Part shown: one piece after another, positions 9,680-22,462 of the stretch
Layout: each line of letters starts with the position of its first letter
How positions within the stretch are numbered: the first letter of the stretch is position 1
NCBI GenBank assembly: GCA_963727625.1
Contig: CAVSHR010000008.1
Span: 224,001-288,000, forward strand
Direction of reading: 5' to 3'
DNA from: an uncultured delta proteobacterium
GTDB taxonomy: Bacteria; Desulfobacterota; Binatia; UBA9968
DNA length: 64,000 bases
Program-made: the position numbers and the translations under genes
The notes under the pieces: model-generated
What the model was told of the DNA's origin: nothing
Seen by the model: the letters and a program-made list of their open reading frames with translations, nothing else
The model's database searches: none

Positions 9680-10219
9680 ATGAAGCACAAACATCTTATT
9701 CAGTTGGACGAAGTCCAGGTGGACAAGATCAAGGCGCCGGAAAATTCCCGCTTCGGCGGCGAACGCCGGCGTGTCGGGGCGCATATCGGCGCAGAGAAAT
9801 TGGGCTACAGCTTTTGTGCCGTGCCGCCGGGGAAGGCGGCGTTTCCTTTTCACTCTCACAGCGGCAACGAGGAAATGATCTACATCATCGAAGGCGAGGG
9901 GACCCTGCGCTTCGGCGCGGAGGAACTGCCGATCGAGTCGCAAACGATCATCGCCTGTCCGCCGGGCAGCCACTGTCCGCATCAACTGATCAACACAGGG
10001 ACGGGCGAGCTGCGCTATCTGGTCGTCAGCACGATGGCTTATCCCGACCTGACCGAGTATCCAGATTCGAATAAAGTCGGTGCTCTAGGCGCAGCCGCCG
10101 TCGGTTCGCAGGCCGGCTTCCGGGCGTTTTTCGTTAAGGACAACAATGCCGATTACTACGCCGGCGAGGATGGCCAAGCCATCGAGCGCATCATCAAAGC
10201 GCCGCGCCGCGACGCATAG
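9680..10219 (+). CDS. Cupin domain protein
   Basis: PFHSHSGNEEMIYIIEGEG and HQLIN cupin motifs; EYPDSNK. Confidence 0.88.
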   Translation: MKHKHLIQLDEVQVDKIKAPENSRFGGERRRVGAHIGAEKLGYSFCAVPPGKAAFPFHSHSGNEEMIYIIEGEGTLRFGAEELPIESQTIIACPPGSHCPHQLINTGTGELRYLVVSTMAYPDLTEYPDSNKVGALGAAAVGSQAGFRAFFVKDNNADYYAGEDGQAIERIIKAPRRDA

Positions 10220-10226
10220 AACTTCG

Positions 10227-10448
10227 TTACTGCTTGGGTTCTTTGTCGGCTTCTTCCAGGGCGGCCTTGTTCTTGTCTTCGCTCTCCTTGAGCGAATCCT
10301 TGGCGCTATCCAGTGCGTTGAAGGGCTGGGTTACGACTTCCTTGACGGCTTCGCGGCCCTTGGACACGGTTTCCTTTTTCGCGTCGCAGCCGTAGAAAAT
10401 CAACGATCCGGCACTCACCAAAAGCATAACGAAGAACCATCTTTTCAT
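10227..10448 (-). CDS. Small putative lipoprotein
   Basis: Signal peptide with lipobox-like FYGC, charged helical body. Confidence 0.6.
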   Translation of the reverse strand: MKRWFFVMLLVSAGSLIFYGCDAKKETVSKGREAVKEVVTQPFNALDSAKDSLKESEDKNKAALEEADKEPKQ

Positions 10449-10547
10449 AGCGCGGCCTGATCCTTACCGGCGACCTCTTGCAGAGCCTTCGGCTGTTGTC
10501 AGGTCCATTGAGCAAATAATCAAAGCCCGACACTGAGCTTTCTCTCG

Positions 10548-10697
10548 GATGATGCAGGTGACGAGGGCGGCATTTCAAGCCGTGGCGAACCTGAATGAAC
10601 AGGCCACTGACTCTAAGAGCCACACCCGCGTCTAAATTTCTTTGCAGAATTCTTTCTAAATCCCGCTACCTGCTAAATTCCTATGGTAGACCCTATT
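10548..10697 (-). repeat. ~150-bp repeat, copy A (probable end of a second related element)
   Basis: Highly similar to 12775-12924; terminates in GACCCTATT, the same motif as the transposase element end. Confidence 0.8.
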
Positions 10698-10749
10698 CCC
10701 TCTCGATCAGATGGTAGAAGGCACCGTCAAACTCCGAACTGCTTCTATG

Positions 10750-11563
10750 TTATTTTTCATTAAAAACTTTACCAATTTGGTTCAAATTGATTTTTCGAAT
10801 GATCGCATGCTTGCGAATCTTCGATAACCACTCCTTGTAAGCTGGGTCGATCCGTCGTTCAACAATACAGGTAAGGACCACTTGGGTATTCTTTACTTTC
10901 CCAATCGTTTGGATCGTGAAGATATAACATATATGAGATTACGCGACTTTTGTCCTTCAATCAATACGTAAGTTCCTGGATAATCCAGATTGAAATCTGC
11001 GACGACAATATCAACCATGTCCGTATAAGATGGACTCCCTGAAGCTTAACGCTGTCTTTCAATAACCATTAAACTGTTTTGAAAACCGTCTCAATTATTT
11101 TTTCCTTCGTCGGAAGTCGAGCGGTGCTAGAAGTGACGATCCGGGCAGGTCGAAGTGCAATGTCAAAACGTTCGGCCATGACTTACGGTGTTTGGTGGAA
11201 ATTTACCCAAAAATCTGGCGGTTGTATGTTCAAGCGGTCGTTAGGCGCTGTTACGAATTGTGACAAAAGCCGTCAGAATTCTCAAGTAAGCCTTTATAGT
11301 AATATGAAAGCGGTTCTCCTTGAAAGTTTCGGAGGTGTTTACGAAGCGCAACAAAGTCCGGCCATTATAGAACTTAACATGGATAGGCAATGACTTTCCC
11401 AACTGATATTAGGACGTTTATGCCAGAAAACATCGCGGCAAATATCACGCACAATAGCATTTTTCACGGAGCCCAAGAGGACATTGATAGGTTCAGCCGC
11501 GAGAACAGAGCGAAGTAAACAAAATGCAGCAAAAAGCAGAACCATGTAAAATTGCCGATTCAC
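10750..11563 (-). pseudogene. Degenerate secreted putative immunity protein
   Basis: Signal-peptide-like N-terminus (ORF 11339-11563) directly after the toxin fragment; AT-rich, several frame breaks; 3' end approximate. Confidence 0.4.
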
Positions 11564-11575
11564 GTTTCCCTCGCG

Positions 11576-11719
11576 TTAACGTAATTGCCGATAAAAATAA
11601 GCGTTGCCAATCCGCTCCGTAAACTCAAGTTTCCCTTGATTAATAAGAGGTCTAAAACTTTCCGGTATTCTCTTTCCATGATGGTACATTATCGCTCCTC
11701 CGGTCGGATCAGGTGACTG
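11576..11719 (-). pseudogene. Orphan C-terminal fragment of a SleB/CwlJ-like cell wall hydrolase domain
   Basis: Manual translation QSPDPTGGAIMYHH...FTERIGNAYFYRQLR*; matches the DPTGGA-x-x-Y/H...T-x-x-IG-x-x-x-FY pattern; begins at the element end. Confidence 0.6.
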
Positions 11720-11746
11720 GAATCTGGTGTCAGGCCTGAGTATTGA

Positions 11747-12679
11747 CTATTTAGCCAACATTCGTGCGAGTTTCTTCTCGGTCGGCTCGTCCCGATGCGT
11801 CTCGTACCAAGCATAGAGACGGCTGATCATGGACGGATCGCGATTAAGCCGCCGCCCTAGTTCCTTCGTCGTCAGTCCACACTGTTGCCGTGCCAGGTAC
11901 ACCAGCTGCGCTCTCATGGCCACCCATCGACGCTGCCGCCCGACGTGCAGCAATACCTCGCTTTTCACATCATGGGCTTGTGCAATCGTTTCGAGCAGCC
12001 GGGCAAAGCTCACTTTATTTCCCCTTATCTCAACTTCTCGGGCTTCGCTACGCTCGGCCACCTTGCTTAAAAATCGCTCTTCACCCAAAAAGCGCTGGTC
12101 GATGGTTTCATAGTACTTCTCGTCGTGCCCCTGTTTGAACCCGTCTTCGATAAACCCCTGGTATCCCCGCCGGGCGGCTCCCAGGGTCGAGCCAAACTGG
12201 CCAAGCGTTGCTTCGGTGTCGACTTTGACGGCAGCCGGTTTGCCCAGATACGCCCCGTGGCTGCTCCAGCGATAGCGCCACGGATTCTCGGGGACTTTCA
12301 ATCGAGCCGGATTGAGATGGATATAGCGCACCAGTTCAAGCAGGTAGGCGTCGCGGTCGCAGAGGATCGCCTTGTAGCGGCCTTGAAACAGGTGGCCGAC
12401 CTTGCCGTGGCGGCGGTTGAATATCTGGGTATAGCTTCCTTGAATCCCTTGCATGATCTTGGATAGTCCAACGCGCTTGGTCTCGATCAGGATGTGGACG
12501 TGGTTGGCCATCAAGACATAAGCATGGAGCCGAAAGCCGTAGCGCTGGCGATAGTGCTCGATGCGTTGGAGGTAGCTCTGGCGGTCGTGCTCGTCGTGGA
12601 AGGTCTTCTGGCGCTGGTTGCCGCGCACGATGACATGGTACAAGGCACCGTCAAACTCGACTCGGGGCTTTCGTGCCAT
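11747..12679 (-). CDS. RAYT-like Y1 (HUH) transposase with C-terminal DnaA-C-like HTH
   Basis: YHVIVRGN, MANHVH (HUH), LFQGRY, RYIHLNP (catalytic Tyr), YRWSS; tail AQLVYLARQQCGLTTKELGRRLNRDPSMIS. Confidence 0.93.
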   Translation of the reverse strand: MARKPRVEFDGALYHVIVRGNQRQKTFHDEHDRQSYLQRIEHYRQRYGFRLHAYVLMANHVHILIETKRVGLSKIMQGIQGSYTQIFNRRHGKVGHLFQGRYKAILCDRDAYLLELVRYIHLNPARLKVPENPWRYRWSSHGAYLGKPAAVKVDTEATLGQFGSTLGAARRGYQGFIEDGFKQGHDEKYYETIDQRFLGEERFLSKVAERSEAREVEIRGNKVSFARLLETIAQAHDVKSEVLLHVGRQRRWVAMRAQLVYLARQQCGLTTKELGRRLNRDPSMISRLYAWYETHRDEPTEKKLARMLAK

Positions 12680-12687
12680 GCCGGCAC

Positions 12688-12715
12688 AGTATCAGTGGAG
12701 AAGACTGAATGTCAA
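12688..12715 (-). promoter_or_regulatory. Sigma70-like transposase promoter, probably leaderless
   Basis: TTGACA-16 nt-GATACT, 8 nt before the ATG, no Shine-Dalgarno; similar in copies 2-4. Confidence 0.55.
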
Positions 12716-12774
12716 ATAAATCAATACTCAGGCCTGACCCTATTTCCTATTTCTCTGCTGCGGTCGACCCCTCA

Positions 12775-12924
12775 GATGATGCAGGTGACGAGGGCGGCAT
12801 TTCAAGCCGTTGCGAACCTGAATGAACAGGCCACTGACCCCAAGAGCCACACCCTCGTCAAAATCTCTTTACAGGATTCTTTTAAATCCTGCTACCTGCT
12901 AAATTCCTATGGTAGACCCCAATT
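12775..12924 (-). repeat. ~150-bp repeat, copy B
   Basis: Similar to 10548-10697; terminates in GACCCCAATT. Confidence 0.8.
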
Positions 12925-12943
12925 CCTGACGCGTATTTGCTGG

Positions 12944-13363
12944 TTACGCCTGTCTGTCACGATCAACCCTCGCGCACATACCGTAGGCGATCATTGCGAC
13001 TATGGTGGAAAACAAATATATCCATAGAAACAAGGCAGCTCCTTGAGCAAACAGCAGAAGACTGGCCGGAATTACTGGCGTGACGGCCAGAGCAGCAAGA
13101 CGTGGATACCTTTCAACAAAACCGTAAGGCAAGAGGAGCGAGGCAAGACTATAAACAAGCGAGGCCAACACCATTGCGACCACTAGTAAAAGGTACGTGT
13201 ACGCCGCGCTATCCAAGAAATCTATAAGATTAGTGCTTCCGGGCTCACCTCGGAGCCTGAGTTCAAACTCCAGCGCAACCAAAAACACTGGCAAAAACAT
13301 CGCCGCCGCTATGAAGGCGTTCCAAAGAAACATCGATATGAGTTTCCGCCAATTCATCATCAC
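12944..13363 (-). CDS. Multi-TM membrane protein, putative immunity protein
   Basis: About four hydrophobic helices; overlaps the stop of the upstream toxin-like fragment (GTGA). Confidence 0.6.
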   Translation of the reverse strand: MMMNWRKLISMFLWNAFIAAAMFLPVFLVALEFELRLRGEPGSTNLIDFLDSAAYTYLLLVVAMVLASLVYSLASLLLPYGFVERYPRLAALAVTPVIPASLLLFAQGAALFLWIYLFSTIVAMIAYGMCARVDRDRQA

Positions 13364-13831
13364 GGCGATCCAACCGTTACACTACCGCAAATTCCTGTTA
13401 GGCATATGGCACGCGATTCCCGGCTCCGAAACAAGAACTGAGTTGATCCGCCTACGGTCCGCGTAAGCTCAAACGAAGGGAACGGGTCTATGACGCCTCG
13501 GGCGAGAATGCCCCCCGAATTTGCCGTAATAGAGAGATTAAAGTCTATTGCCGGTCCAATGCCGAACAGATCAAAAGAGTTTCGAACCGCACCGCTCAAA
13601 CCCACCGTGTTTCCCCTTACCCCAACGTTTACTATATTACCTTGGCCAATTGTCAAAGCAGACCTGCAGACTTGAACTGCTGCGGCACATGTAGGGTTGA
13701 CCTGAAAACTACCGGTTCCCGTCTCAAAATCGAGGTTGAAAAACGCGCGGGACCGAGTGGGATTTGGAGCAGGATCAAAATCGCGTGCATCTCCCCGAAG
13801 ACCAAGGGCGGCTCGGGATCCAATGGTGGGG
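13360..13831 (-). pseudogene. Orphan Rhs-CT-like toxin domain (DUF3238-like), 5'-truncated
   Basis: Frame stays open upstream of ORF 13360-13656 to the element end: ...LRGDARDFDP...SRAFF...GPAIDFNL...DPFPSFE... Confidence 0.55.
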
Positions 13832-14845
13832 ATCTGGTGTCAGGCCTGAGTATTGACTATTTGGCCAACATTCGTGCGAGTTTCTTCTCGGTCGGCTCGT
13901 CCCGATGCGTCTCGTACCAAGCATAGAGACGGCTGATCATGGACGCATCGCGATTAAGCCGCCGCCCTAGTTCCTTCGTCGTCAGTCCACACTGTTGCCG
14001 TGCCAGGTACACCAGCTGCGCTCTCATGGCCACCCATCGACGCTGCCGCCCGACGTGCAGCAATACCTCGCTTTTCACATCATGGGCTTGTGCAATCGTT
14101 TCGAGCAGCCGGGCAAAGCTCACTTTATTTCCCCTTATCTCAACTTCTCGGGCTTCGCTACGCTCGGCCACCTTGCTTAAAAATCGCTCTTCACCCAAAA
14201 AGCGCTGGTCGATGGTTTCATAGTACTTCTCGTCGTGCCCCTGTTTGAAACCGTCTTCGATAAACCCCTGGTATCTCCGCCGGGCGGCTCCCAGGGTCGA
14301 GCCAAACTGGCCAAGCGTTGCTTCGGTGTCGACTTTGACGGCAGCCGGTTTGCCCAGATACGCCCCGTGGCTGCTCCAGCGATAGCGCCACGGATTCTCG
14401 GGGACTTTCAATCGAGCCGGATTGAGATGGATATAGCGCACCAGTTCAAGCAGGTAGGCGTCGCGGTCGCAGAGGATCGCCTTGTAGCGGCCTTGAAACA
14501 GGTGGCCGACCTTGCCGTGGCGGCGGTTGAATATCTGGGTATAGCTTCCTTGGATGCCCTGCATGATCTTGGACAGTCCAACACGCTTGGTCTCGATCAG
14601 GATGTGGACGTGGTTGGCCATCAAGACATAAGCATGGAGCCGAAAGCCGTAGCGCTGGCGATAGTGCTCGATGCGTTGGAGGTAGCTCTGGCGGTCGTGA
14701 TCGTCGTGGAAGGTCTTCTGGCGCTGGTTGCCGCGCACGATGACGTGGTACAAGGCACCGTCAAACTCGACTCGGGGCTTTCGCGCCATGCCGGGCACAG
14801 TATCAGTGGAGAAGACTGAATGTCAAATAAATCAATACTCAGGCC
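13832..14845 (-). mobile_element. HUH/Y1 transposase element, copy 2 (upstream IR shortened)
   Basis: ATCTGGTGTCAGGCCTGAGTATTGA at 13832; TCAATACTCAGGCC at 14832-14845. Confidence 0.88.
13857..14789 (-). CDS. RAYT-like Y1 transposase, copy 2
   Basis: Nearly identical to 11747-12679. Confidence 0.93.
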   Translation of the reverse strand: MARKPRVEFDGALYHVIVRGNQRQKTFHDDHDRQSYLQRIEHYRQRYGFRLHAYVLMANHVHILIETKRVGLSKIMQGIQGSYTQIFNRRHGKVGHLFQGRYKAILCDRDAYLLELVRYIHLNPARLKVPENPWRYRWSSHGAYLGKPAAVKVDTEATLGQFGSTLGAARRRYQGFIEDGFKQGHDEKYYETIDQRFLGEERFLSKVAERSEAREVEIRGNKVSFARLLETIAQAHDVKSEVLLHVGRQRRWVAMRAQLVYLARQQCGLTTKELGRRLNRDASMISRLYAWYETHRDEPTEKKLARMLAK

Positions 14846-14865
14846 CTAACGCATGACCGAAAAGC

Positions 14866-15283
14866 TTAGCTGTCGATCCTTAGATACACTAACTTATTAT
14901 CTACGAAAACTATTTTATCCTGGCGATTTTTAACCTCTTTTGTCAAAATGCACGCCCGGGATTGTCCATCAACGTCAACATCTTGAGGTGGAATACCGGA
15001 TTGTTCAAAAGTGCCAGGTTCAAAGCCAGGAGGACATGTAGTCGTGAAATTATTTCTGATATTTGTCGGCAACGAAAAAATGGTCAAGGTGGCTCCCTGG
15101 CCAAAAAAAGCATCGTGCTGGTCTCGCTGCCATGTCACACGCAGGCCGTCGGGCAGAGGAAACCCTATAATCCCTTCAACAATACGAACTGGCGACAAAA
15201 GCCATGAATAGACCTCGCGCCATGAACCCACGCACGGAACAATTACCGAGAAAGGAAATTGTGATCAACCAAGACTTGCGCAT
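14866..15283 (-). CDS. Putative immunity protein (N-terminal frameshift near 15247)
   Basis: ORF 14866-15231 directly downstream of the Rhs CT; ATG at 15283 gives a hydrophobic leader if one G is removed. Confidence 0.5.
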
Positions 15284-15289
15284 GTTTTT

Positions 15290-16868
15290 TCACCTCGGTT
15301 TCACATACTGCCCATAGGTTATGTCGAATGGGGCACAATTGCCTCCAATCGCACATGTTGCTTGGATAATTAAACTAATACCGTTACGGTGAGTAAGCAA
15401 CTTGCTCTGTTGTATGTTAAAGTTGTAATTATCGTAAAATCCAATTGCTTGACCGTTTGTATTGTAAAAAACACTTGCGGTACCGAAAAGCAAAGTCGAA
15501 ATTTGAATTCGGACCAAAATCGAACTGCTTTCGTATAAGAATCTGACCGCTCAACTTAATTACGTAATACTAAGTGGACTTCGATTCGACACCCAGTCCG
15601 TTACTTCGTTGAACTGAGATGGGGACAATCGTACGCCGTTGTTCTGTCCTAACCAGTATTTTTCAAAAAGCGATTTTTCGAATTCTGTGTTTAATCTAGA
15701 ATGATTTCGTATTACATTCCCTATGAGCCCCAAGTCCGGATGTGAAGATCGTCCTCCGCGTCCGCCAGGATAGTCGTTTCCTGCTGAAGCCAGAAGGACG
15801 GGACTAAAGAACCCTCCTCCGCCTGCATTGCTAACCCAGGAATCTGCGGATCGCCGGTATCAGGAACAAATCCTCCCTGATTTGTTCAACCCAACTGAAA
15901 ACTGGTTGCGATATCCCGAATCAATCCCGCTGTCCCCAAGACGTGCTGAACCCCACACCGGCCTCCGCTAAAGTCGAAAATCCTCCTGGCGGCAAACCAG
16001 TCGCGATCGAGACAAAATCAAGTATGACGCTAAAGATCTTTCCGAAGATACTATTAAAAAACCCGCCCTTTTTCTTATGCCTGTGGAAATACCCGCTGGG
16101 ATCGGTGTAATTTTGCGGGCTGTTTAAGACGTAGCTGTAGCGGTTGAGGTTCTGGGGATCGAAGGGCGTTTGGACAAATGGATCGGCGGAGATGAATCTC
16201 CCAATCTCGGCGTCGTAATACCGGCCACCGTAATAGTAGAGTCCGGTCTCCGGATCCAGCTCTTTGCCCGTGAACCGATGGGTTGGATCGATGGTGCCTT
16301 CTGAACGCGAAATCGTTCCCCAAGGATCGTATTCGACGAGCTGGACTCTCGTCCCGTTGATGTCGGTGACGACATTGACGCTGCCCAGATGATCGTTGTG
16401 GTAGAAGTATTTGTTGGCCCCCCGCTTTGAGGCAACGTTTTCATCGCCGATGCGGATGTATTTGATCACCACTCCGTTCGGATCGATCTCGTAGCCCGAA
16501 AAGGGGTAAATCGTAATACCGGTCGGAGCGTTCTTCTTCACCCGCACACCGCCATAGTCGTACTCCATCGAAGTGCTGCCGCCGCCGGAGATGGCAATAC
16601 TGCTGACCCGGTTGTCGATGTCCCAGGTGAGGGTCTGGTTGCCCCTCGTCAGCATGTTGCCGTTGGCGTCGTAGGTGTAGCTCTTGCTCGAGACCCGCGT
16701 GATTGGTGACCGCCGAGGGGTGCATCGAATCGCCGTAGCTTAAGGTCGATCCGCACTTGTCGGTGAGATTGCCGATGGAGTTGTAGGTATAGGAACAGTT
16801 CTGCTGGGACTGACCGGCGCCGAAGGTCCCTGCGCCGGTGATCATGCGGTTCAGATCGTCGTAGGCAG
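15290..16868 (-). pseudogene. 5'-truncated Rhs/YD-repeat gene with distinct C-terminal toxin region
   Basis: YD repeats, FTGKELDPETGLYYYGGRYYD, NRYSYVLNSPQNYTDPSG core; CT fragment ends FYDNYNFN...FDITYGQYVKPR; frameshifts. Confidence 0.85.
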
Positions 16869-17893
16869 AATCTGGTGTCAGGCCTGAGTATTGACTATTT
16901 AGCCAACAATCGTGCGAGTCTCTTTTCGGTCGGCTCGTCCCGATGCGTCTCGTACCAAGCATAGAGACGGCTGATCATGGACGCATCGCGATGAAGCCGC
17001 CGCCCTAGTTCCTTCGTCGTCAGTCCACACTGTTGCCGTGCCAGGTACACCAGCTGCGCTCTCATGGCCACCCATCGACGCTGCCGCCCGACGCGCAGCA
17101 ATACCTCGCTTTTCATATCATGGGCTTGTGAAATCGTTTCGAGCAGCCGGGCAAAGCTCACTTTATTTCCCCTTATCTCAACTTCTCGGGCTTCGCTACG
17201 CTCGGCCACCTTGCTTAAAAATCGTTCTTCACCCAAAAAGCGCTGGTCGATGGTTTCATAGTACTTCTCGTCGTGCCCCTGTTTGAACCCGTCTTCGATA
17301 AACCTCTGGTATCCCCGCCGGGCGGCTCCCAGGGTCGAGCCAAACTGGCCAAGCATTGCTTCGGTGTCGACTTTGACGGCACTCGGTTTGCCCAGATACG
17401 CCCCGTGGCTGCTCCAGCGATAGCGCCACGGATTCTCGGGGACTTTCAATCGAGCCGGATTGAGATGGATATAGCGCACCAGTTCAAGCAGGTAGGCGTC
17501 GCGGTCACAGAGGATCGCCCGGTAGCGGCCTTGAAACAGGTGGCCGACCTTGCCGTGGCGGCGGTTGAATATCTGGGTGTAGCTTCCTTGGATGCCCTGC
17601 ATGATCTTGGACAGTCCAACACGCTTGGTCTCGATCAGGATGTGGACGTGGTTGGCCATCAAGACATAAGCATGGAGCCGAAAGCCGTGGCGCTGGCGAT
17701 AGTATTCGATCCGTTGGAGGTAGCTCTGGCGGTCGTGATCGTCGTGGAAGGTCTTCTGGCGCTGGTTGCCGCGCACGATAACGTGGTAGAAGGCGCCGTC
17801 AAACTCGACTCGGGGCTTTCGCGCCATGCAGCCACAGTATCAGTGGGGAAGACTGCAACGTCAAATAAATCAATACTCAGGCCTGACCCTATT
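16869..17893 (-). mobile_element. HUH/Y1 transposase element, copy 3 (complete IR)
   Basis: IR at 16877-16894 and 17870-17887. Confidence 0.88.
16895..17827 (-). CDS. RAYT-like Y1 transposase, copy 3
   Basis: 310 aa, a few substitutions relative to copies 1 and 2. Confidence 0.93.
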   Translation of the reverse strand: MARKPRVEFDGAFYHVIVRGNQRQKTFHDDHDRQSYLQRIEYYRQRHGFRLHAYVLMANHVHILIETKRVGLSKIMQGIQGSYTQIFNRRHGKVGHLFQGRYRAILCDRDAYLLELVRYIHLNPARLKVPENPWRYRWSSHGAYLGKPSAVKVDTEAMLGQFGSTLGAARRGYQRFIEDGFKQGHDEKYYETIDQRFLGEERFLSKVAERSEAREVEIRGNKVSFARLLETISQAHDMKSEVLLRVGRQRRWVAMRAQLVYLARQQCGLTTKELGRRLHRDASMISRLYAWYETHRDEPTEKRLARLLAK

Positions 17894-17915
17894 CCCTCTC
17901 CCTATTCCCTCTCCC

Positions 17916-18350
17916 CAATCGAGCCGGATTGAGATGGATGTAGCGCACCAGTTCGAGCAGGTAGGCGTCGCGGTCGCAGAGGATCGCCTTGTAGCGTCCT
18001 TGAAATAGGTGGCCGACCTTGCGGTGGCGGCGGTTGAATATCTGGGTGTAGCTTCCTTGGATCCCCTGCATGATCTTGGATAGCCCAACGCTCTTGGTCT
18101 CGATCAGGATGTGGACGTGGTTGGCCATCAAGACGTAAGCGTAGAGCCGAAAGCCGTAGCGCTGGCGATAGTGCTCGATGCGTTGGAAATAGCTCTGGCG
18201 GTCGTGATCGTCGTGAAAGGTCTTCTGGCGCTGGTTACCGCGCACTATGACATGGTAGAAGGCACCGTCAAACTCGACTCGGGCTTTCGTGCCATGCCGC
18301 CACCGTATCAGTGGAGAAGACTCAATGTCAAATAAATCAATACTCAGGCC
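17916..18350 (-). mobile_element. Partial element copy 4 (5' part of transposase plus upstream end)
   Basis: Transposase from ATG 18295 (1-bp deletion near 18281) to RYIHLNPARL, cut by the end of copy 3; TCAATACTCAGGCC at 18337-18350. Confidence 0.85.
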
Positions 18351-18371
18351 CCAATTCCTGACGCTTGGACC

Positions 18372-18878
18372 CTATTCTTCTCTACTCTGGATTTCCTCCT
18401 CGTAAAATGCCACCTCAAATCCACATTCAAGATTTAGTTCGGCGAGAAGACTCATTTGCTCGGGCCAAAGGGTTGGCCCACCATCCCCCGCAGCGGACCA
18501 CCACACACAAGTAACTGCCATGACTACATCTTCGGCTTCCTGAATCGCGCGTAGCTTATCTTTCACAGGAAAAAGCCGCGCGAGCAACCAATCGAGATGC
18601 CTTCTAACATCTTTCGATTGAACGTGACCTTCTGAGGAAAGAAACCATCCTCCGATTTTGGCCTCTCTCCCGACACCACGAGAGTTTTTTTTGATTTCGC
18701 CTTTCGACTGGCTATTGGTTGCTTCGATCCCGAGGAGGGTTGTAATTGAGCCCGGATCGAGCCTATGTCCGTAGATTCGTAGTTTAGCCAACGTTCTTTC
18801 GCATGTTTCATAGGCATCATTGATCGGGGTTAGCCGTGAAGCTTCTATTCGCATAAAATCCTCATCGAACGAATTCAC
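18372..18878 (-). CDS. DUF4279-like putative immunity protein
   Basis: LRIYGHRLDPGSITTLLGIEAT...GWFLSSE...HLDWLL pattern; overlaps the Rhs CT stop. Confidence 0.7.
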   Translation of the reverse strand: MNSFDEDFMRIEASRLTPINDAYETCERTLAKLRIYGHRLDPGSITTLLGIEATNSQSKGEIKKNSRGVGREAKIGGWFLSSEGHVQSKDVRRHLDWLLARLFPVKDKLRAIQEAEDVVMAVTCVWWSAAGDGGPTLWPEQMSLLAELNLECGFEVAFYEEEIQSREE

Positions 18879-21028
18879 TAATATTCCCTATAATATTTCC
18901 AGCCTTGTCGAGGTAATTACCAATAGCATCTATTTTGCCATGAAAATCTGAGCCTTTTCCATAGAAATCCTTTAGCTCCTCAACGGCACGCCCCCATTCT
19001 CGCGGAGTGCGGTCAATGTCAAAAAACTTGTTAAGAGCTTTCGCGGTACTCGACCGAATTGTGTTGCCTCCGCTTTGCAGGATACGTACACGAGCGGCAC
19101 CCACGGTACCTTCTGCAAAGCTACCGCTAAGCCGGGGAAGTATGACCTTCGGAGCCTGCTGTAGTGCTTTTAAAATTCCGACGCGCGCAATGCCCACCAG
19201 ACCTGTGAGGATATCGATTGGGTCGATGAGCGGCTGATCCAATCCCGGTTCATCCATCCACGGTGGGCGCGAACGGATTCCGAAATCTGATCTAGCGTCA
19301 CTCACTACGGTTCCCCCTGTGACGTCGGCTTGCGCTACCTGTATCCCCGGCGCGAATCCGCTTGCGAAGACCCCTGCGTGACTCGCCGCCACTGCGGAAG
19401 CCAGAAGAGCTGGAGATTCAAGCCCTGGCGGAGCCAACCCTCCCAACAGGCCCGCAGTAAATCCCCCAGATGAGCCCGCCGAGAAACGGATTCCCGCCAT
19501 TCAGCGCGGCATTGACCGCACCACCAACTGCGCCGCCTACCGCTCCTGCAACCAGCGCCGGATAACCAGCGCCGTAGGTTACCACTGTGATGATGGCACC
19601 GATGAAAAACCCAAAGAAACTCCTGAAAAACCCGCCCTTCTTTTTCTTATGCCTGATGAAAATACCCACTCGGGTCGGTGTAGTTCTGCGGGCTGTTGAG
19701 GACGTAGCTGTAGCGGTTGAGATTCTGGGGATCGAAGAGCGTTCATGAACAAACGGATCGGCGGAGATGAATCTCCCGACCTCGGCGTCGTAATACCGGC
19801 CACCGTAATAGTAGAGGCCGGTCTCCGGATCTAGCTCTTTGCCGGTAAACCGATGGGTGGGATCGACGGTGCCTTCCGAGCGCGAGATGGTGCCCCACGG
19901 GTCGTATTCGACGAGCTGGACCCTCGTCCCGTTGATGTCGGTGACGACATTGACACTGCCCAGATGATCGTTGTGATAGAAGTATTTGTTGGTCCCCCGT
20001 TTTGCGGCAACGTTTTCATCGCCGATGCGGATGTATTTGATCACCACTCCGTTGGGATCGATCTCGTAGCCCGAAAAGGGATAGATGAAGGTACCGGCCG
20101 GAGCGTTCTTCTTCACCCGCACACCGCCATAGTCGTACTCCATCGAAGTGCTGCCGCCGCCGGAGATGGCAATACTGCTGACCCGGTTGTCGATGTCCCA
20201 GGTGAGGGTCTGGTTGCCCCTCGTCAGCATGTTGCCGTTGGCGTCGTACGTGTAGTTCTTGCTCAGGCCCGCATGATTGGTGACCGCGGAGGGGTGCATC
20301 GAATCGCCGTAGCTTAAGGTCGATCCGCACTTGTCGGTGAGATTGCCGATGGCGTTGTAGGTATAGGAACAGTTCTGCTGGGACTGACCGGCGCCGAAGG
20401 TCCCTGCGCCGGTGATCATGCGGTTCAGATCGTCGTAGGTAAACGTCCGGCTCGCGGTAAAGAGACTGTCGGTGATGGACGTGACGTTGCCGTTGTTGTC
20501 GTAGCCGTAGGATAAATTCTGCTGGTTGCCTGAGGTGGCCTTGTTGGTCACCCGGAAGTTGTTAACGTTATACGTCCAGGTGGTGGTGAGATTATTGGCG
20601 TAGGTAAGCTGGGTTTTCTGGCCGCGGGCATTGTAGGTGATGCCGTTGATGTAGCCGGGCGCGGTGTTTAACCAGCCGGCTTCGTTGTACGTATACGTGA
20701 CCGTTTCACTGTCGGGGAATGTCTCGCTGGTGATGCGGTTGAGGGCGTCGTAGCTTTGCGCCATGGTTTGCCACACGCCCAAGAGCAGGCGCTGGGTCTG
20801 GGTCGTCCTGCCCAACTGATCGTAGGCAAATTTGGTCGTGGTCGCCTGATCGACGATTTGTGTCACCCGGCCCTTCGAATAGGGCACCGCGGCATCGTCA
20901 TAGGTCCAGGTAATGAGCGTCGTCGCGCAGGTCGATCCCTGCTTTTTGGTAGTGGGGCGGCCTAAGGAATCGTAATCGAAACAGAGCGTCTGGCCATTGG
21001 CGTCTTTCTGGGTGACGAGATCGCCGGC
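18862..21028 (-). pseudogene. 5'-truncated Rhs/YD-repeat polymorphic toxin with C-terminal toxin domain
   Basis: YD repeats open from 21028 (AGDLVTQKDANGQ...), Rhs core, Gly-rich hydrophobic linker, CT ...QSGGNTIRSSTAKALN...DFHGKID...; several frameshifts at ~19470-19750. Confidence 0.88.
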
Positions 21029-21243
21029 AATCTGGTGTCAGGCCTGAGTATTGACTATTTGGCTAACAATCGTACGAGTCTCTTCTCGGTCGGCTCGTCC
21101 TGATGCGTGTCGTTCCATGCCTAGAGACGGCTGATCATGGATGCATCGCGATGCATCCGCCGCCCTAGTTCCTTCGTCGTTAGTCGATACCGTTGCCGTG
21201 CCAGGTGCACCAGCTGCGCTCTCACGGCCACCCAACGACGCTG
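21029..21243 (-). mobile_element. Partial, decayed element copy 5 (downstream end plus HTH-coding tail)
   Basis: AATCTGGTGTCAGGCCTGAGTATTGA at 21029 followed by diverged transposase 3' sequence. Confidence 0.85.
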
Positions 21244-21339
21244 TCCGATTAGTGGTTGAAGAGAGCGTGGCACAATTTCGCCATGATGGTACATAACTGC
21301 TCCCTCCGTTGGGTCCGGAATGGCTCCGAAGTCATTTAT

Positions 21340-21996
21340 TCATCGTGTGACTTTGTTTTTTCCAACAATCCGTTGCAATTCTTCCCGCCTGACATCGCCT
21401 TCACGAATGATCCGAACCCGATCTCCGCAGATTTCCGCGACGGTGGAACCGGTCCGCGAAGTCAATTCACCGCCGGCAACGAAAATTTCGATCTTTCCTG
21501 AAAAATAATTTCTTGCTTGTTCCACGGTCCGCGCGGCGGGTTGTCCGGAGGGATTGGCACTGGTCGCGGTTATTGGCCGGCCGAGTGTTTTGACCAACTC
21601 GGCCGCGATCGGTTGGCTGGAAATGCGCACGCCGATGTTACCGGCGGAATTGAGCAACGGCTTCGGCAAATCGTCGCGCGCGGGTAAAACCAATGTCAGG
21701 GGACCGGGCCAGAACTCGGCGATCAATCGTTCGGCAAGCGGAGAAACTTCTGTCACCAAAGTGTCGAGCATGGCGCGGTCGGCGACAAGCACGGGAATCG
21801 GATTGGCGATATCGCGGCCTTTGAGTTGAAAAACTTTTTCCACCGCCGTGTTGTCGAGCGCATCCGCGCCCAAGCCGTAGAGCGTTTCGGTTGGAAACGC
21901 GATGACCTCGCCGCTTTTGAGCGCGGCTAGAGCGGCGGCAAAAACCTCAGCTTTTGTTTCGCTCACTTTGAAGCTTGCGGTCCCGCTCTTCGACAC
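21340..21996 (-). CDS. tsaC: L-threonylcarbamoyladenylate synthase (Sua5/YrdC)
   Basis: FPTETLYGLGAD, KGRD, WPGPLTLV, TSANPSG; start may be GTG 21966. Confidence 0.93.
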   Translation of the reverse strand: MSKSGTASFKVSETKAEVFAAALAALKSGEVIAFPTETLYGLGADALDNTAVEKVFQLKGRDIANPIPVLVADRAMLDTLVTEVSPLAERLIAEFWPGPLTLVLPARDDLPKPLLNSAGNIGVRISSQPIAAELVKTLGRPITATSANPSGQPAARTVEQARNYFSGKIEIFVAGGELTSRTGSTVAEICGDRVRIIREGDVRREELQRIVGKNKVTR

Positions 21997-22462
21997 CCGC
22001 CGCCATCTCCTTCTTGGACTGGATCAATTTGGCTGCGACCGCTTTGTCGGTGCGCGCGACGATCTGCGCAGCGAAGATGCCGGCATTGGCGGCGCCGGCC
22101 TTGCCGATCGCCATGGTCGCCACCGGGATGCCCGCGGGCATCTGCACGGTGGCCAGCAGAGCATCCAAGCCTTTGAGACTCGATGAATCGATCGGAATGC
22201 CGATCACGGGCAGGGTGGTGTTGGCGGCGATGGCGCCGGCCAAGTGAGCTGCCGCGCCGGCGCCGCAGATGATCGCGTGCAAACCTCGTTGCTCGGCGCT
22301 AGCGGCATATTGCGCCGCCCGCTCCGGAGTGCGGTGCGCCGACATAATGTGGGTTTCGTAAGCGATACCGAATGATTCGAGGCGTTTTTCCGCCTCACGC
22401 ATGACTTCGAGATCCGAGTCGCTGCCCATGAGAATGCCGACCTTCGGATGTGTGTTTGCCAC
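21947..22462 (-). CDS. purE: N5-CAIR mutase
   Basis: MGSDSD, SAHRTP, AGAAAHLAG, VQMPAGIPVAT. Confidence 0.96.
   Translation of the reverse strand: MANTHPKVGILMGSDSDLEVMREAEKRLESFGIAYETHIMSAHRTPERAAQYAASAEQRGLHAIICGAGAAAHLAGAIAANTTLPVIGIPIDSSSLKGLDALLATVQMPAGIPVATMAIGKAGAANAGIFAAQIVARTDKAVAAKLIQSKKEMAAGVEERDRKLQSERNKS

Follow-up and report, generated by a model that had tools for sequence, protein, structure and literature searches.

Toxin/immunity modules of a headless orphan Rhs array alternate with TIRtron copies in an uncultured delta proteobacterium

The DNA described here is a window of 64,000 nucleotides from an uncultured delta proteobacterium (GTDB lineage Bacteria; Desulfobacterota; Binatia; UBA9968), taken from contig CAVSHR010000008.1 of assembly GCA_963727625.1 at positions 224,001 to 288,000. 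Positions 10,548 to 21,243 of the window hold a headless orphan Rhs array with three recognisable toxin/immunity modules and one unidentifiable module, set between copies of an element of about 1 kb. On its predicted protein and its ends, the element is a TIRtron, and its gene product, a TIRYT, is a Y1 HUH transposase whose helix-turn-helix (HTH) tail resembles domain IV of DnaA. The array is a strain-specific island. Orphan Rhs-CT/immunity arrays are formed by C-terminal displacement, and the usual explanation of such arrays is homologous recombination within the conserved core. The route by which new toxin/immunity modules are brought in and stored is largely unknown. Below, the genome holding the window is called G000 and the contig that carries it C8; other contigs of that genome are cited as C2, C4, C5, C6, C7 and C9. 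Positions without a contig prefix are window coordinates, and L-numbers denote individual loci compared.

Comparison of positions 10000-22000 with themselves revealed a single repeated element of ~1.03 kb. Three full copies align at 11719-12748, 13829-14845 and 16868-17897, with a pairwise identity of 96.3-98.6%, and there are two partial copies, a 436-bp left (5') end at 17916-18350 and a 215-bp right (3') end at 21029-21243. The island's repeats are this element, the Rhs core and a short sequence called X; the interval has no Rfam match at E<=0.1. All open reading frames (ORFs) of the array lie on the minus strand, and the element copies alternate, in the same orientation, with modules made of an Rhs 3' end, a toxin tip and an immunity gene. 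This alternating, co-oriented layout had been noticed in a sequence-only reading of the region, which also stated that the element is absent from the rest of the window. The self-comparison and the strands of the ORFs bear out the first statement and blastn the second, with matches on contig C8 confined to 11700-21243. The span given in that reading also holds, except that its left start (10544-10734) is not an element copy; it consists of a second copy of X, X', and a 31-bp piece of the transposase N-terminus. In the order in which the minus strand reads them, the features are as follows (TIR, terminal inverted repeat).

21340-21996: intact Sua5 gene.
21244-21339, minus strand: unique 96-bp spacer adjoining the Sua5 stop codon; right edge of the island.
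21029-21243, minus strand: TIRtron copy 5, a right-end fragment with the last ~63 codons, the right TIR and ACCAGAT.
19418-21028, minus strand: Rhs 3' fragment of module 1, comprising a 489-aa ORF and the homology upstream of it (RHS_repeat, E=4.6e-25; Rhs core TIGR03696, E=8e-17).
18862-19500, minus strand: toxin tip 1 (CT1), a 212-aa ORF in a frame that differs from that of the upstream Rhs fragment.
18372-18878, minus strand: immunity-type gene of module 1, DUF4279, 168 aa, intact (Pfam E=3.7e-20, whole profile matched); its stop lies in the left-end extension of copy 4.
17916-18371, minus strand: TIRtron copy 4, a left-end fragment with the first ~127 transposase codons and a degenerate TIR tip.
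16870-17915, minus strand: TIRtron copy 3, full, with a 28-nt leader of tandem repeats and the TIRYT ORF at 16895-17827; it runs directly into the truncated copy 4.
15232-16865, minus strand: Rhs 3' fragment of module 2 with core (TIGR03696, E=3.5e-24) and toxin tip 2, in several broken frames; the Rhs homology, from 16865, abuts copy 3.
14866-15231, minus strand: putative immunity gene of module 2, 121 aa, intact; its stop and the left end of copy 2 are 17 bp apart.
13832-14862, minus strand: TIRtron copy 2, full, with the TIRYT ORF at 13857-14798; the left TIR tip is mutated, TTAGGG for GTCAGG.
13360-13825, minus strand: toxin-tip remnant of module 3, the 3' end of an orphan Rhs gene, severed at 13825 by copy 2.
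12944-13363, minus strand: putative immunity gene of module 3, a membrane protein of 139 aa, intact, with a full-length paralogue at C5:1074220-1074639.
12761-12927, minus strand: repeat X, between the module 3 immunity gene and the left end of copy 1.
11722-12751, minus strand: TIRtron copy 1, full, both end extensions included, with an intact TIRYT gene at 11747-12679 (310 aa) and TIRs at 11729-11746 and 12721-12738.
10735-11718, minus strand: module 4, of lower GC, with short broken ORFs only; four ORF pieces have no Pfam match at E<=0.1.
10704-10734, minus strand: transposase N-terminal coding remnant, 31 bp, 90% identical to 12628-12658, with 24 bp 100% identical to 18252-18275.
10544-10701, minus strand: repeat copy X', 91% identical to 12771-12927, starting with GGGGTC and then TACCATAGG.
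10449-10529, minus strand: decayed ~80-bp duplicate of the Sua5 3' end, aligned to the Sua5 3' ends of five congeners and to the intact G000 copy; left edge of the island.
10448: start of the lipoprotein gene, directly downstream of the island's left edge.

The island measures 10.9 kb (about 10449-21339) and separates the Sua5 gene from a small lipoprotein gene. In 13 of 14 congeners the lipoprotein gene follows Sua5 within a few bases, and in most of them a cupin gene and two further genes come next. No TIRYT or Rhs match was found at this site in any of the 14 congeners in the 12 kb examined. The island contains no full-length rhs gene, and the array does not stand downstream of one; the nearest, on C5 and C2, are ~80% identical to the island's Rhs fragments in the core region.

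A fragment of the TIGR03696 core, a variable tip and a small immunity gene, the composition expected of an orphan Rhs array, were found in modules 1 and 2 and, on the strength of 89% identity to an orphan on C5, in module 3, but not in module 4. Every toxin gene is truncated or has a broken frame, whereas the immunity ORFs remain intact. The Rhs part of module 1 is 80.5% identical to C5:1078658-1080060, within a 1772-aa Rhs gene. This homology reaches base 21028, and the fragment is truncated N-terminally precisely at the right end of copy 5. CT1 had no Pfam or NCBIfam match; a protein atlas placed CT1 with MafB-type polymorphic toxins at 0.87, a lead only, and the failure to find relatives among proteins of 372-2000 aa is weak evidence. 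On metagenome contigs, 11 of 27 loci have a CT1 homologue directly upstream of a DUF4279 homologue; in one case (L213) the CT1 homologue comes right after an Rhs core. Since the pairing recurs, CT1 and the DUF4279 protein are taken as a genuine pair of toxin tip and immunity-type protein.

The Rhs sequence of module 2 is repeated in module 1 (16042-16865 and 19611-20439, 92.8% identical). Three 1-base indels in the module 2 tip separate the window from contigs of the public run X2, and because of these differences the frame breaks could be real decay or assembly error. The 121-aa ORF had no family match in Pfam and NCBIfam scans. Both modules had been read from the letters alone as an Rhs end followed by a tip and an immunity gene, DUF4279-like in module 1. 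That composition was confirmed, in module 1 by the Rhs repeats, the core and DUF4279, and in module 2 by the Rhs repeats, the core and the intact putative immunity ORF, with the second tip frame-broken.

Module 3, at 12932-13825, is an 89% identical, 5'-truncated copy of C5:1074208-1075101, which holds the 3' end of an orphan Rhs gene of 538 aa and the gene for a 139-aa membrane protein. Between the two paralogues the toxin remnant is 95% identical in amino acids, with a ratio of nonsynonymous to synonymous divergence (omega, dN/dS) of 0.17 and a synonymous divergence (dS) of 0.17; the immunity gene is 75.5% identical, with a dN/dS of 0.30 and a dS of 0.48. As the remnant is more conserved than the immunity gene, there is no sign of relaxed selection on it. 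The comparison suggests a mosaic history, with a recombination breakpoint between the toxin and immunity genes. The module had been described as a DUF3238-like tip with a membrane protein. The membrane protein stands, and the tip is that of an orphan Rhs gene; DUF3238 was not confirmed, the sole match, to the full-length paralogue, being below threshold (E=0.064; the score of 13.5 bits falls short of the cut-off, 21.1). A search of the genome for DUF3238 gave no match, but the control was unmatched too, so the search is uninformative. In module 4 the SleB-like tip and secreted protein proposed earlier were not recovered. Its ORFs are broken and without a family match, and Hydrolase_2 (SleB) had no match in the whole genome at E<=0.1 with stops read through.

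Repeat X, ~160 bp in length, always starts with GGGGTC followed by TACCATAGGAATTTAGCAGGTAGC. Further copies lie at C5:957775-957944, C5:958001-958033, C9:176410-176477, C2:218822-218890 and C6:137903-137937. X follows immunity genes at two Rhs loci, and metagenome contigs show it with other flanks. It folds better than shuffled sequences (z=-2.9) and resembles an isolated left end from a second family of TIRtrons. A place for X within the IS110-like element at C5:956368-957681 was rejected, since that element is single-copy and X is multi-copy.

The three defining features of the TIRYT/TIRtron class, a Y1 HUH core, a C-terminal HTH of the Bac_DnaA_C or HTH_23 kind and TIRs with a tip of the GGGGWSAS type, were all found in the element. 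The 310-aa ORF matches Pfam Y1_Tnp (PF01797) at E=9.2e-18 (65 bits, cut-off 23), and its tail matches Bac_DnaA_C (PF08299) at E=1.1e-5, with 25.8 bits, under the cut-off of 31.5. A search of the PDB with a single TIRYT protein gave no match; a profile of 11 paralogues from this genome did match, to structures of DnaA domain IV at E=3.4e-9 and to TnpA-REP (4er8) at E=0.002. The NCBIfam model REP_Tyr_transpos (NF047646), for the tyrosine transposases associated with repetitive extragenic palindromes (REPs), or RAYTs, gave 74.2 bits, under its cut-off of 80, and the IS200 model NF033573 gave 26 bits against a cut-off of 55. Among the 11 paralogues the HUH histidines, H60 and H62, are invariant. 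Y119, the tyrosine of the RYIHLNP motif, which we take to be the catalytic residue, is at least 90% conserved. In two TIRYT paralogues (C5:955327-956148 and L011 6424-7275) F replaces Y in the GRYK motif, and the tyrosine of RY(I/V)xLNP is kept.

The full copies encode an intact ORF of 310-313 aa. An 18-bp inverted repeat had been claimed at the first reading; GTCAGGCCTGAGTATTGA indeed forms a perfect TIR on the three full array copies and on one further full copy, the only one elsewhere in the genome (C4:223281-224290, 96% identical). In the 6.6 Mb of the genome it occurs 8 times exactly and 28 times at <=3 mismatches. The array copies diverge by 1.4-10% and therefore do not stem from a recent local burst. 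All five right ends in G000 read CCTGAC and then ACCAGAT, with divergent sequence thereafter. Six of seven complete relatives of the same subfamily have right ends that finish in CCTGACCC(C/T). Relatives of the window element have left ends of the form GGGGTCAGGCCTGAGTATTGA and right ends of the form ...CTCAGGCCTGACCC(C/T); the left tips read (A/G)GGGTCAG in the window and GGGGTCAGG in the relatives. A 13-nt left extension, GAGAGGGAATAGG or near, is common to the copies. Left-end fragments are stacked before intact copies, as with copies 4 and 3 in the window, and likewise at L101, L096 and X. The 12-bp palindrome GTCAGGCCTGAC was considered as an element end and rejected, as the string is found once in the genome, at another place.

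Several variants of these ends were seen. At C5:844823-844914, about 2 kb from a 45%-identical TIRYT paralogue, there is a 92-bp miniature of the window element composed of its left and right ends only. Most family members are bordered by two to four tandem copies of a unit made of a 10-17-nt flank and the TIR tip (GGGGTCA, or GACCCC at right ends). Such tandems were seen in L102, L103, L104, L105, L106, L098 and L151, at C7:164870-165872 and C5:1077228-1077360, and in the window at 17888-17915. They may be the scar of repeated cutting and rejoining. They are not mentioned in the available text of the two papers that define the class (PMC3733652; PMC6006769).

The TIRYT/TIRtron class was described as having a Y1 RAYT-like core, a DnaA_C/HTH tail and TIRs with a GGGGWSAS tip (Di Nocera et al., 2013, PMC3733652), and TIRYTs correspond to subclass 2.1 of a later classification (Quentin et al., 2018, PMC6006769). 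The available text of both papers reports no activity, function or cargo for TIRYTs. The present element shares with TIRtrons the RAYT-related Y1 HUH core, the Bac_DnaA_C/HTH tail, TIRs instead of REPs, the GGGGWSAS tip and the small number of copies. It differs in that its copies bound toxin/immunity modules, whereas the class, in the available text, has no link to Rhs, toxin/immunity genes, arrays or cargo; moreover, the right ends in this genome all bear the non-canonical ACCAGAT extension. Of the earlier description as a RAYT-like HUH transposase, the Y1 HUH core is retained. The RAYT label was replaced by TIRYT/TIRtron, because the inverted repeat, at the counts given above, is not a dispersed REP family. 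A RAYT is a single-copy gene amid dispersed REPs; here there are six copies and fragments at 90-99% identity and no dispersed repeat. IS200/IS605 elements resemble the present element in making no target duplications, but they have a short TnpA (~130-150 aa), subterminal hairpins and no TIRs, in contrast to a protein of 310 aa with an extra domain, and TIRs.

The joints between elements and modules are sharp. Beyond the right-end ACCAGAT and 0-6 variable nt, Rhs sequence is cut at 21028, 16865 and 13825, the last inside the tip gene, and at these bases the homology to an intact paralogue ends exactly. No common target motif was seen at the Rhs cut points. Two of the left ends lie 17-18 bp past the stop codons of immunity genes, one lies behind X and one within the truncated sister copy. 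No target-site duplication was found at any copy, and left and right flanks are never contiguous. Since the flanks of each element are unrelated and there is no target duplication, these are recombinant joints and not simple insertions. The supposition that the elements mark the boundaries of cassettes was thus correct, in that element ends coincide with cassette boundaries and the flanks are unrelated.

The architecture is repeated at C5:1072940-1083237 with a 35%-identical TIRYT. There a full Rhs gene of 1772 aa is followed by an immunity-type gene, a TIRYT and an orphan Rhs; next in order are an immunity gene, the short end of an Rhs core and another TIRYT. The homology of the orphan Rhs begins 14 nt past the right end of the TIRYT element. 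The C4 copy (223281-224290) lies in a non-toxin locus, and ~25 bp separate its left end from the end of an Rhs core, 174 bp in length. At C4:222417-224974 (L004) the Rhs core end and the full TIRtron stand between two 79%-identical copies of a 677-bp segment, which, judged from sequence alone, appears to hold a gene resembling those for dioxygenases and the beginning of one resembling those for phosphoesterases. Such a layout is what would be expected if a circle with a homeologous segment had integrated. At C9:287873-295713 (L008 5861-13768) two direct 997-bp TIRtrons of another subfamily, 98.2% identical, bracket ~5.9 kb of non-toxin genes, and the right end of one of them abuts a CRISPR array beside cas genes.

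TIRYT genes are associated with Rhs beyond the window. All 10 Rhs core hits of G000, which fall into five loci, have a Y1_Tnp hit within 3.2 kb. These Rhs-adjacent Y1 genes represent three or more subfamilies, with 34-47% identity to the gene of the window. Enrichment beside Rhs toxin/immunity pairs had been put forward as a check on the sequence-only reading, and it was found: the only other full copy of the element, on C4, adjoins an Rhs core fragment, and every Rhs locus of G000 has a Y1 neighbour. Seen from the transposases, 9 of 35 Y1 hits in G000 lie within 5 kb of an Rhs core and 26 do not; eight TIRYT paralogue loci that were inspected have unrelated contexts. Among 40 relatives, 9 of 23 Rhs cores have a TIRYT within 2.5 kb, co-oriented in seven of the nine; two of the nine come from an unpublished genome (G005), without which the count is 7 of 19.

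The association is restricted by lineage. A class-wide sample was made up of 60 Rhs cores, from the first 60 distinct contigs among the matches listed, leaving out G000, its genus and unpublished genomes; 8 of the 60 regions are shorter than 3 kb owing to contig ends. Five of these cores have a TIRYT <=5 kb downstream. In other genera of the window's family a strong TIRYT match was found at 4 of 7 Rhs loci, compared with 1 of 53 outside the family, there a weak match at 23% identity, and the link is therefore confined to one bacterial family. Conversely, Rhs was found within 8 kb of 3 of 80 TIRYT loci drawn from all bacteria. Element and Rhs are co-oriented at 17 of 20 loci, and the element is typically about 1-2 kb behind the Rhs core; at L037 a tblastn match to Rhs starts ~10 bp after the end of the TIRYT ORF. 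In a tree of 114 TIRYTs, the sampling of which is biased towards Rhs-adjacent cases, the 19 Rhs-adjacent proteins need 10 state changes, at least eight of them forced by well-supported branches. The habit is thus spread over many lineages and is not that of a single specialised clade, though a few small clades composed entirely of Rhs-adjacent members span genera. A lineage-restricted association of TIRYTs with Rhs is well supported, and within this family such elements adjoin Rhs toxin genes much more frequently than expected by chance.

Several known systems invite comparison. Like other orphan Rhs arrays, the island has tandem, co-oriented units of an Rhs core fragment, a variable tip and a small immunity gene, with toxins that lack a delivery part. 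Unlike them, it has no full-length rhs gene at its head and lies between housekeeping genes. Its module boundaries are element ends and not bare breakpoints in core homology, and the Rhs cuts vary in position, far upstream of the core. In IS26 translocatable units and IS26-bounded resistance arrays, direct copies of IS26 scaffold resistance genes. The likeness is in the way direct ~1-kb copies of an element take turns with cargo, in the lack of target duplications and in the partial copies at the array edges; the difference is that IS26 has a DDE transposase and resistance genes, and the island has an HUH Y1 enzyme and toxin/immunity cargo. IS91/ISCR rolling-circle elements have Y2-type HUH enzymes and no TIRs, and carry adjacent DNA by one-end read-through. 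They share the HUH chemistry, and one-end read-through would fit a fixed right boundary with varying cargo. They differ in being of the Y2 type with ori/ter ends and no TIRs, whereas here only Y1_Tnp was matched and TIRs are present.

Recombination enzymes beside immunity genes have been seen in other settings. The Bacteroidales rAID systems are recombinase-associated immunity islands. Genes for XerC/D adjoin polyimmunity loci, as described in the available text of PMC3482391, and insertion sequences (ISs) and Xer sites occur beside poly-immunity clusters, according to the available part of a preprint (10.64898/2026.07.13.738213). Like an integron, the island is an ordered, co-oriented store of immunity-type genes beside a recombination enzyme. 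It differs in having no tyrosine recombinase, attC or attI, and in having one transposase gene per cassette and not one per array. No integrase was found among 10 minus-strand ORFs scanned, Y1_Tnp being the only recombination-enzyme family matched. The term integron-like, which had been applied to it, is consequently not suitable: there is a transposase gene with each cassette, no single integrase, and no attC-like site among the island's repeats. By analogy, the layout resembles IS26-type arrays more closely than an integron.

How was the array built? The explanation that we prefer, while thinking the chances of its being right about even, is assembly by recombination at or between TIRtron copies. 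TIRtrons would have entered rhs loci repeatedly. Direct 1-kb repeats of the element, together with the Rhs core repeats, would then have served as portable joints for the excision, import and re-integration of modules, and units of a TIRtron with the adjacent Rhs 3' end, tip and immunity gene would have been joined head to tail at a site remote from any rhs gene. Either the TIRYT enzyme or host homologous recombination would have made the joints, and the outcome would be an archive with intact immunity ORFs and disabled toxins. The element behaves as an IS does, with several diverged copies, a 92-bp mini-derivative and the direct pair around 5.9 kb on C9. A number of observations weigh against assembly at the elements. 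In four public DNA runs, which contain only 0.06-0.07 of the sampled words (no RNA run was found), the contigs are short and scattered, and no array junction was spanned and no circle junction seen. Contig joints such as that from 16680 to 20336 were discarded, since they link two Rhs core repeats and their short sides have only 23-26 letters. Few reciprocal recombination products were seen, among them left ends fused to the end of an Rhs core, as on C4 and at C5:1073888-1074137, and a coarse check of the variable sites of the four full copies gave no clear recombination mosaic. The replication-strand bias known for IS200/IS605 elements could explain the shared orientation. Orphan arrays without a TIRYT exist for the same toxin-tip family (L213), and the same class has TIRYT-free orphan arrays with Rhs cores ~1.5 kb apart (e.g. 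G069:C15). Finally, of 28 hits to three other transposase families in G000, three lie within 5 kb of an Rhs core, compared with 9 of 35 for Y1; other IS families are thus also enriched near Rhs, and Rhs loci attract IS elements in general.

If the TIRYT itself mobilised the TIRtron with its adjacent Rhs-tip/immunity units, the array would be the work of dedicated cassette shuffling, either with translocatable circles as intermediates, inserting at the tip of an element already resident, or through IS91/ISCR-like one-ended read-through at a defective right end. This is possible, though doubtful. It would account for the fixed, non-canonical right boundary (CCTGAC and ACCAGAT) joined to varying cargo and for the 13-nt left extension (GAGAGGGAATAGG or near) common to the copies. 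On C4 a 174-bp Rhs core end accompanies the element into a non-toxin locus with the 677-bp duplication on either side, as circle integration predicts, and the tandem flank and tip units, like the stacking of left-end fragments, suggest that DNA was repeatedly cut and rejoined at GGGGTC. The Rhs association in at least eight TIRYT lineages, and the small TIRYT clades that are wholly Rhs-adjacent across genera (e.g. L201/L093/C5a and C5b/L156), point in the same direction. TIRYT activity is, on the other hand, undocumented in the available text of PMC3733652 and PMC6006769, and the low-share metagenome contigs gave no circle or junction reads. The points in Rhs at which cargo starts have no common motif, and the tips are mutated on two left ends of the array. 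Most TIRYTs are away from Rhs (77 of 80 in the broad sample; 26 of 35 Y1 hits in G000), and the nearest relatives, eight loci at 57-82% amino acid identity, have no Rhs in the flanks available. That the TIRYTs of this bacterial family act as Rhs-toxin cassette shufflers, cutting at the GGGGTC tip and moving units between loci and strains, we likewise consider rather improbable. The sequence-only reading had gone further, to an integron-like build by site-specific capture. Its link to Rhs, its joints and its intact immunity ORFs were upheld, and the integron-like build was not; nor was capture by the transposase, since host recombination between 1-kb direct repeats could also make the joints and other ISs lie near Rhs.

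The elements might instead have had no part in the building, TIRtrons having inserted independently into a pre-existing orphan array whose neighbouring sequences were later trimmed by deletion. Such a passive sink would be in keeping with the other ISs enriched near the Rhs cores of G000 (3 of 28 hits), where three of the five Rhs loci hold another IS, with the scatter of Rhs-adjacent TIRYTs over the tree (10 changes among 114 proteins), and with the TIRYT-free orphan arrays that are common in the class. We judge it unlikely, since flanks are not contiguous and target duplications are absent at the five array copies and at the C4 copy, and in the window and at C5a the elements end at cassette boundaries on either side. 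In addition, 17 of 20 loci are co-oriented, with the element typically ~1-2 kb behind the Rhs core. The 20 other-IS queries matched two loci of the class-wide 60-locus sample, neither in the window's family; at the seven Rhs loci of the family's other genera there is a TIRYT at four and a match to these queries at none. It could also be asked whether the alternation arose from mis-joined repeats in a metagenome-derived assembly of 15 contigs with an estimated contamination of 6.3%. Single-base frame breaks in several toxin genes could be assembly errors, and no array junction was spanned in the public runs. An artefact is nonetheless very hard to credit. Divergence between the copies is 1.4-10% and the flanks of every junction are unique, the architecture recurs with unrelated elements (C5a, C2a) and in other genomes, and on either side the island runs into conserved syntenic genes.

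In open-access full text, no paper was found that connects Rhs or polymorphic-toxin cassettes to HUH, RAYT or TIRYT elements. With the present results the TIRYT/TIRtron class gains Rhs toxin/immunity modules as a genomic partner that recurs reproducibly in a single bacterial family. The analysis also supplies defined joints, a candidate cleavage tip, GGGGTC, and a model that can be tested. Should the enzyme not make the joints, a 1-kb IS-like repeat is still shown to be able to scaffold a toxin/immunity archive remote from an rhs gene. If it does make them, this would be a new mode of gene-cassette assembly and a first function for the TIRYT class. Cassette shuffling, if true, would be an HUH counterpart of integrons and IS26 units for the genes of interbacterial warfare, providing these bacteria with immunity archives and new toxin tips.

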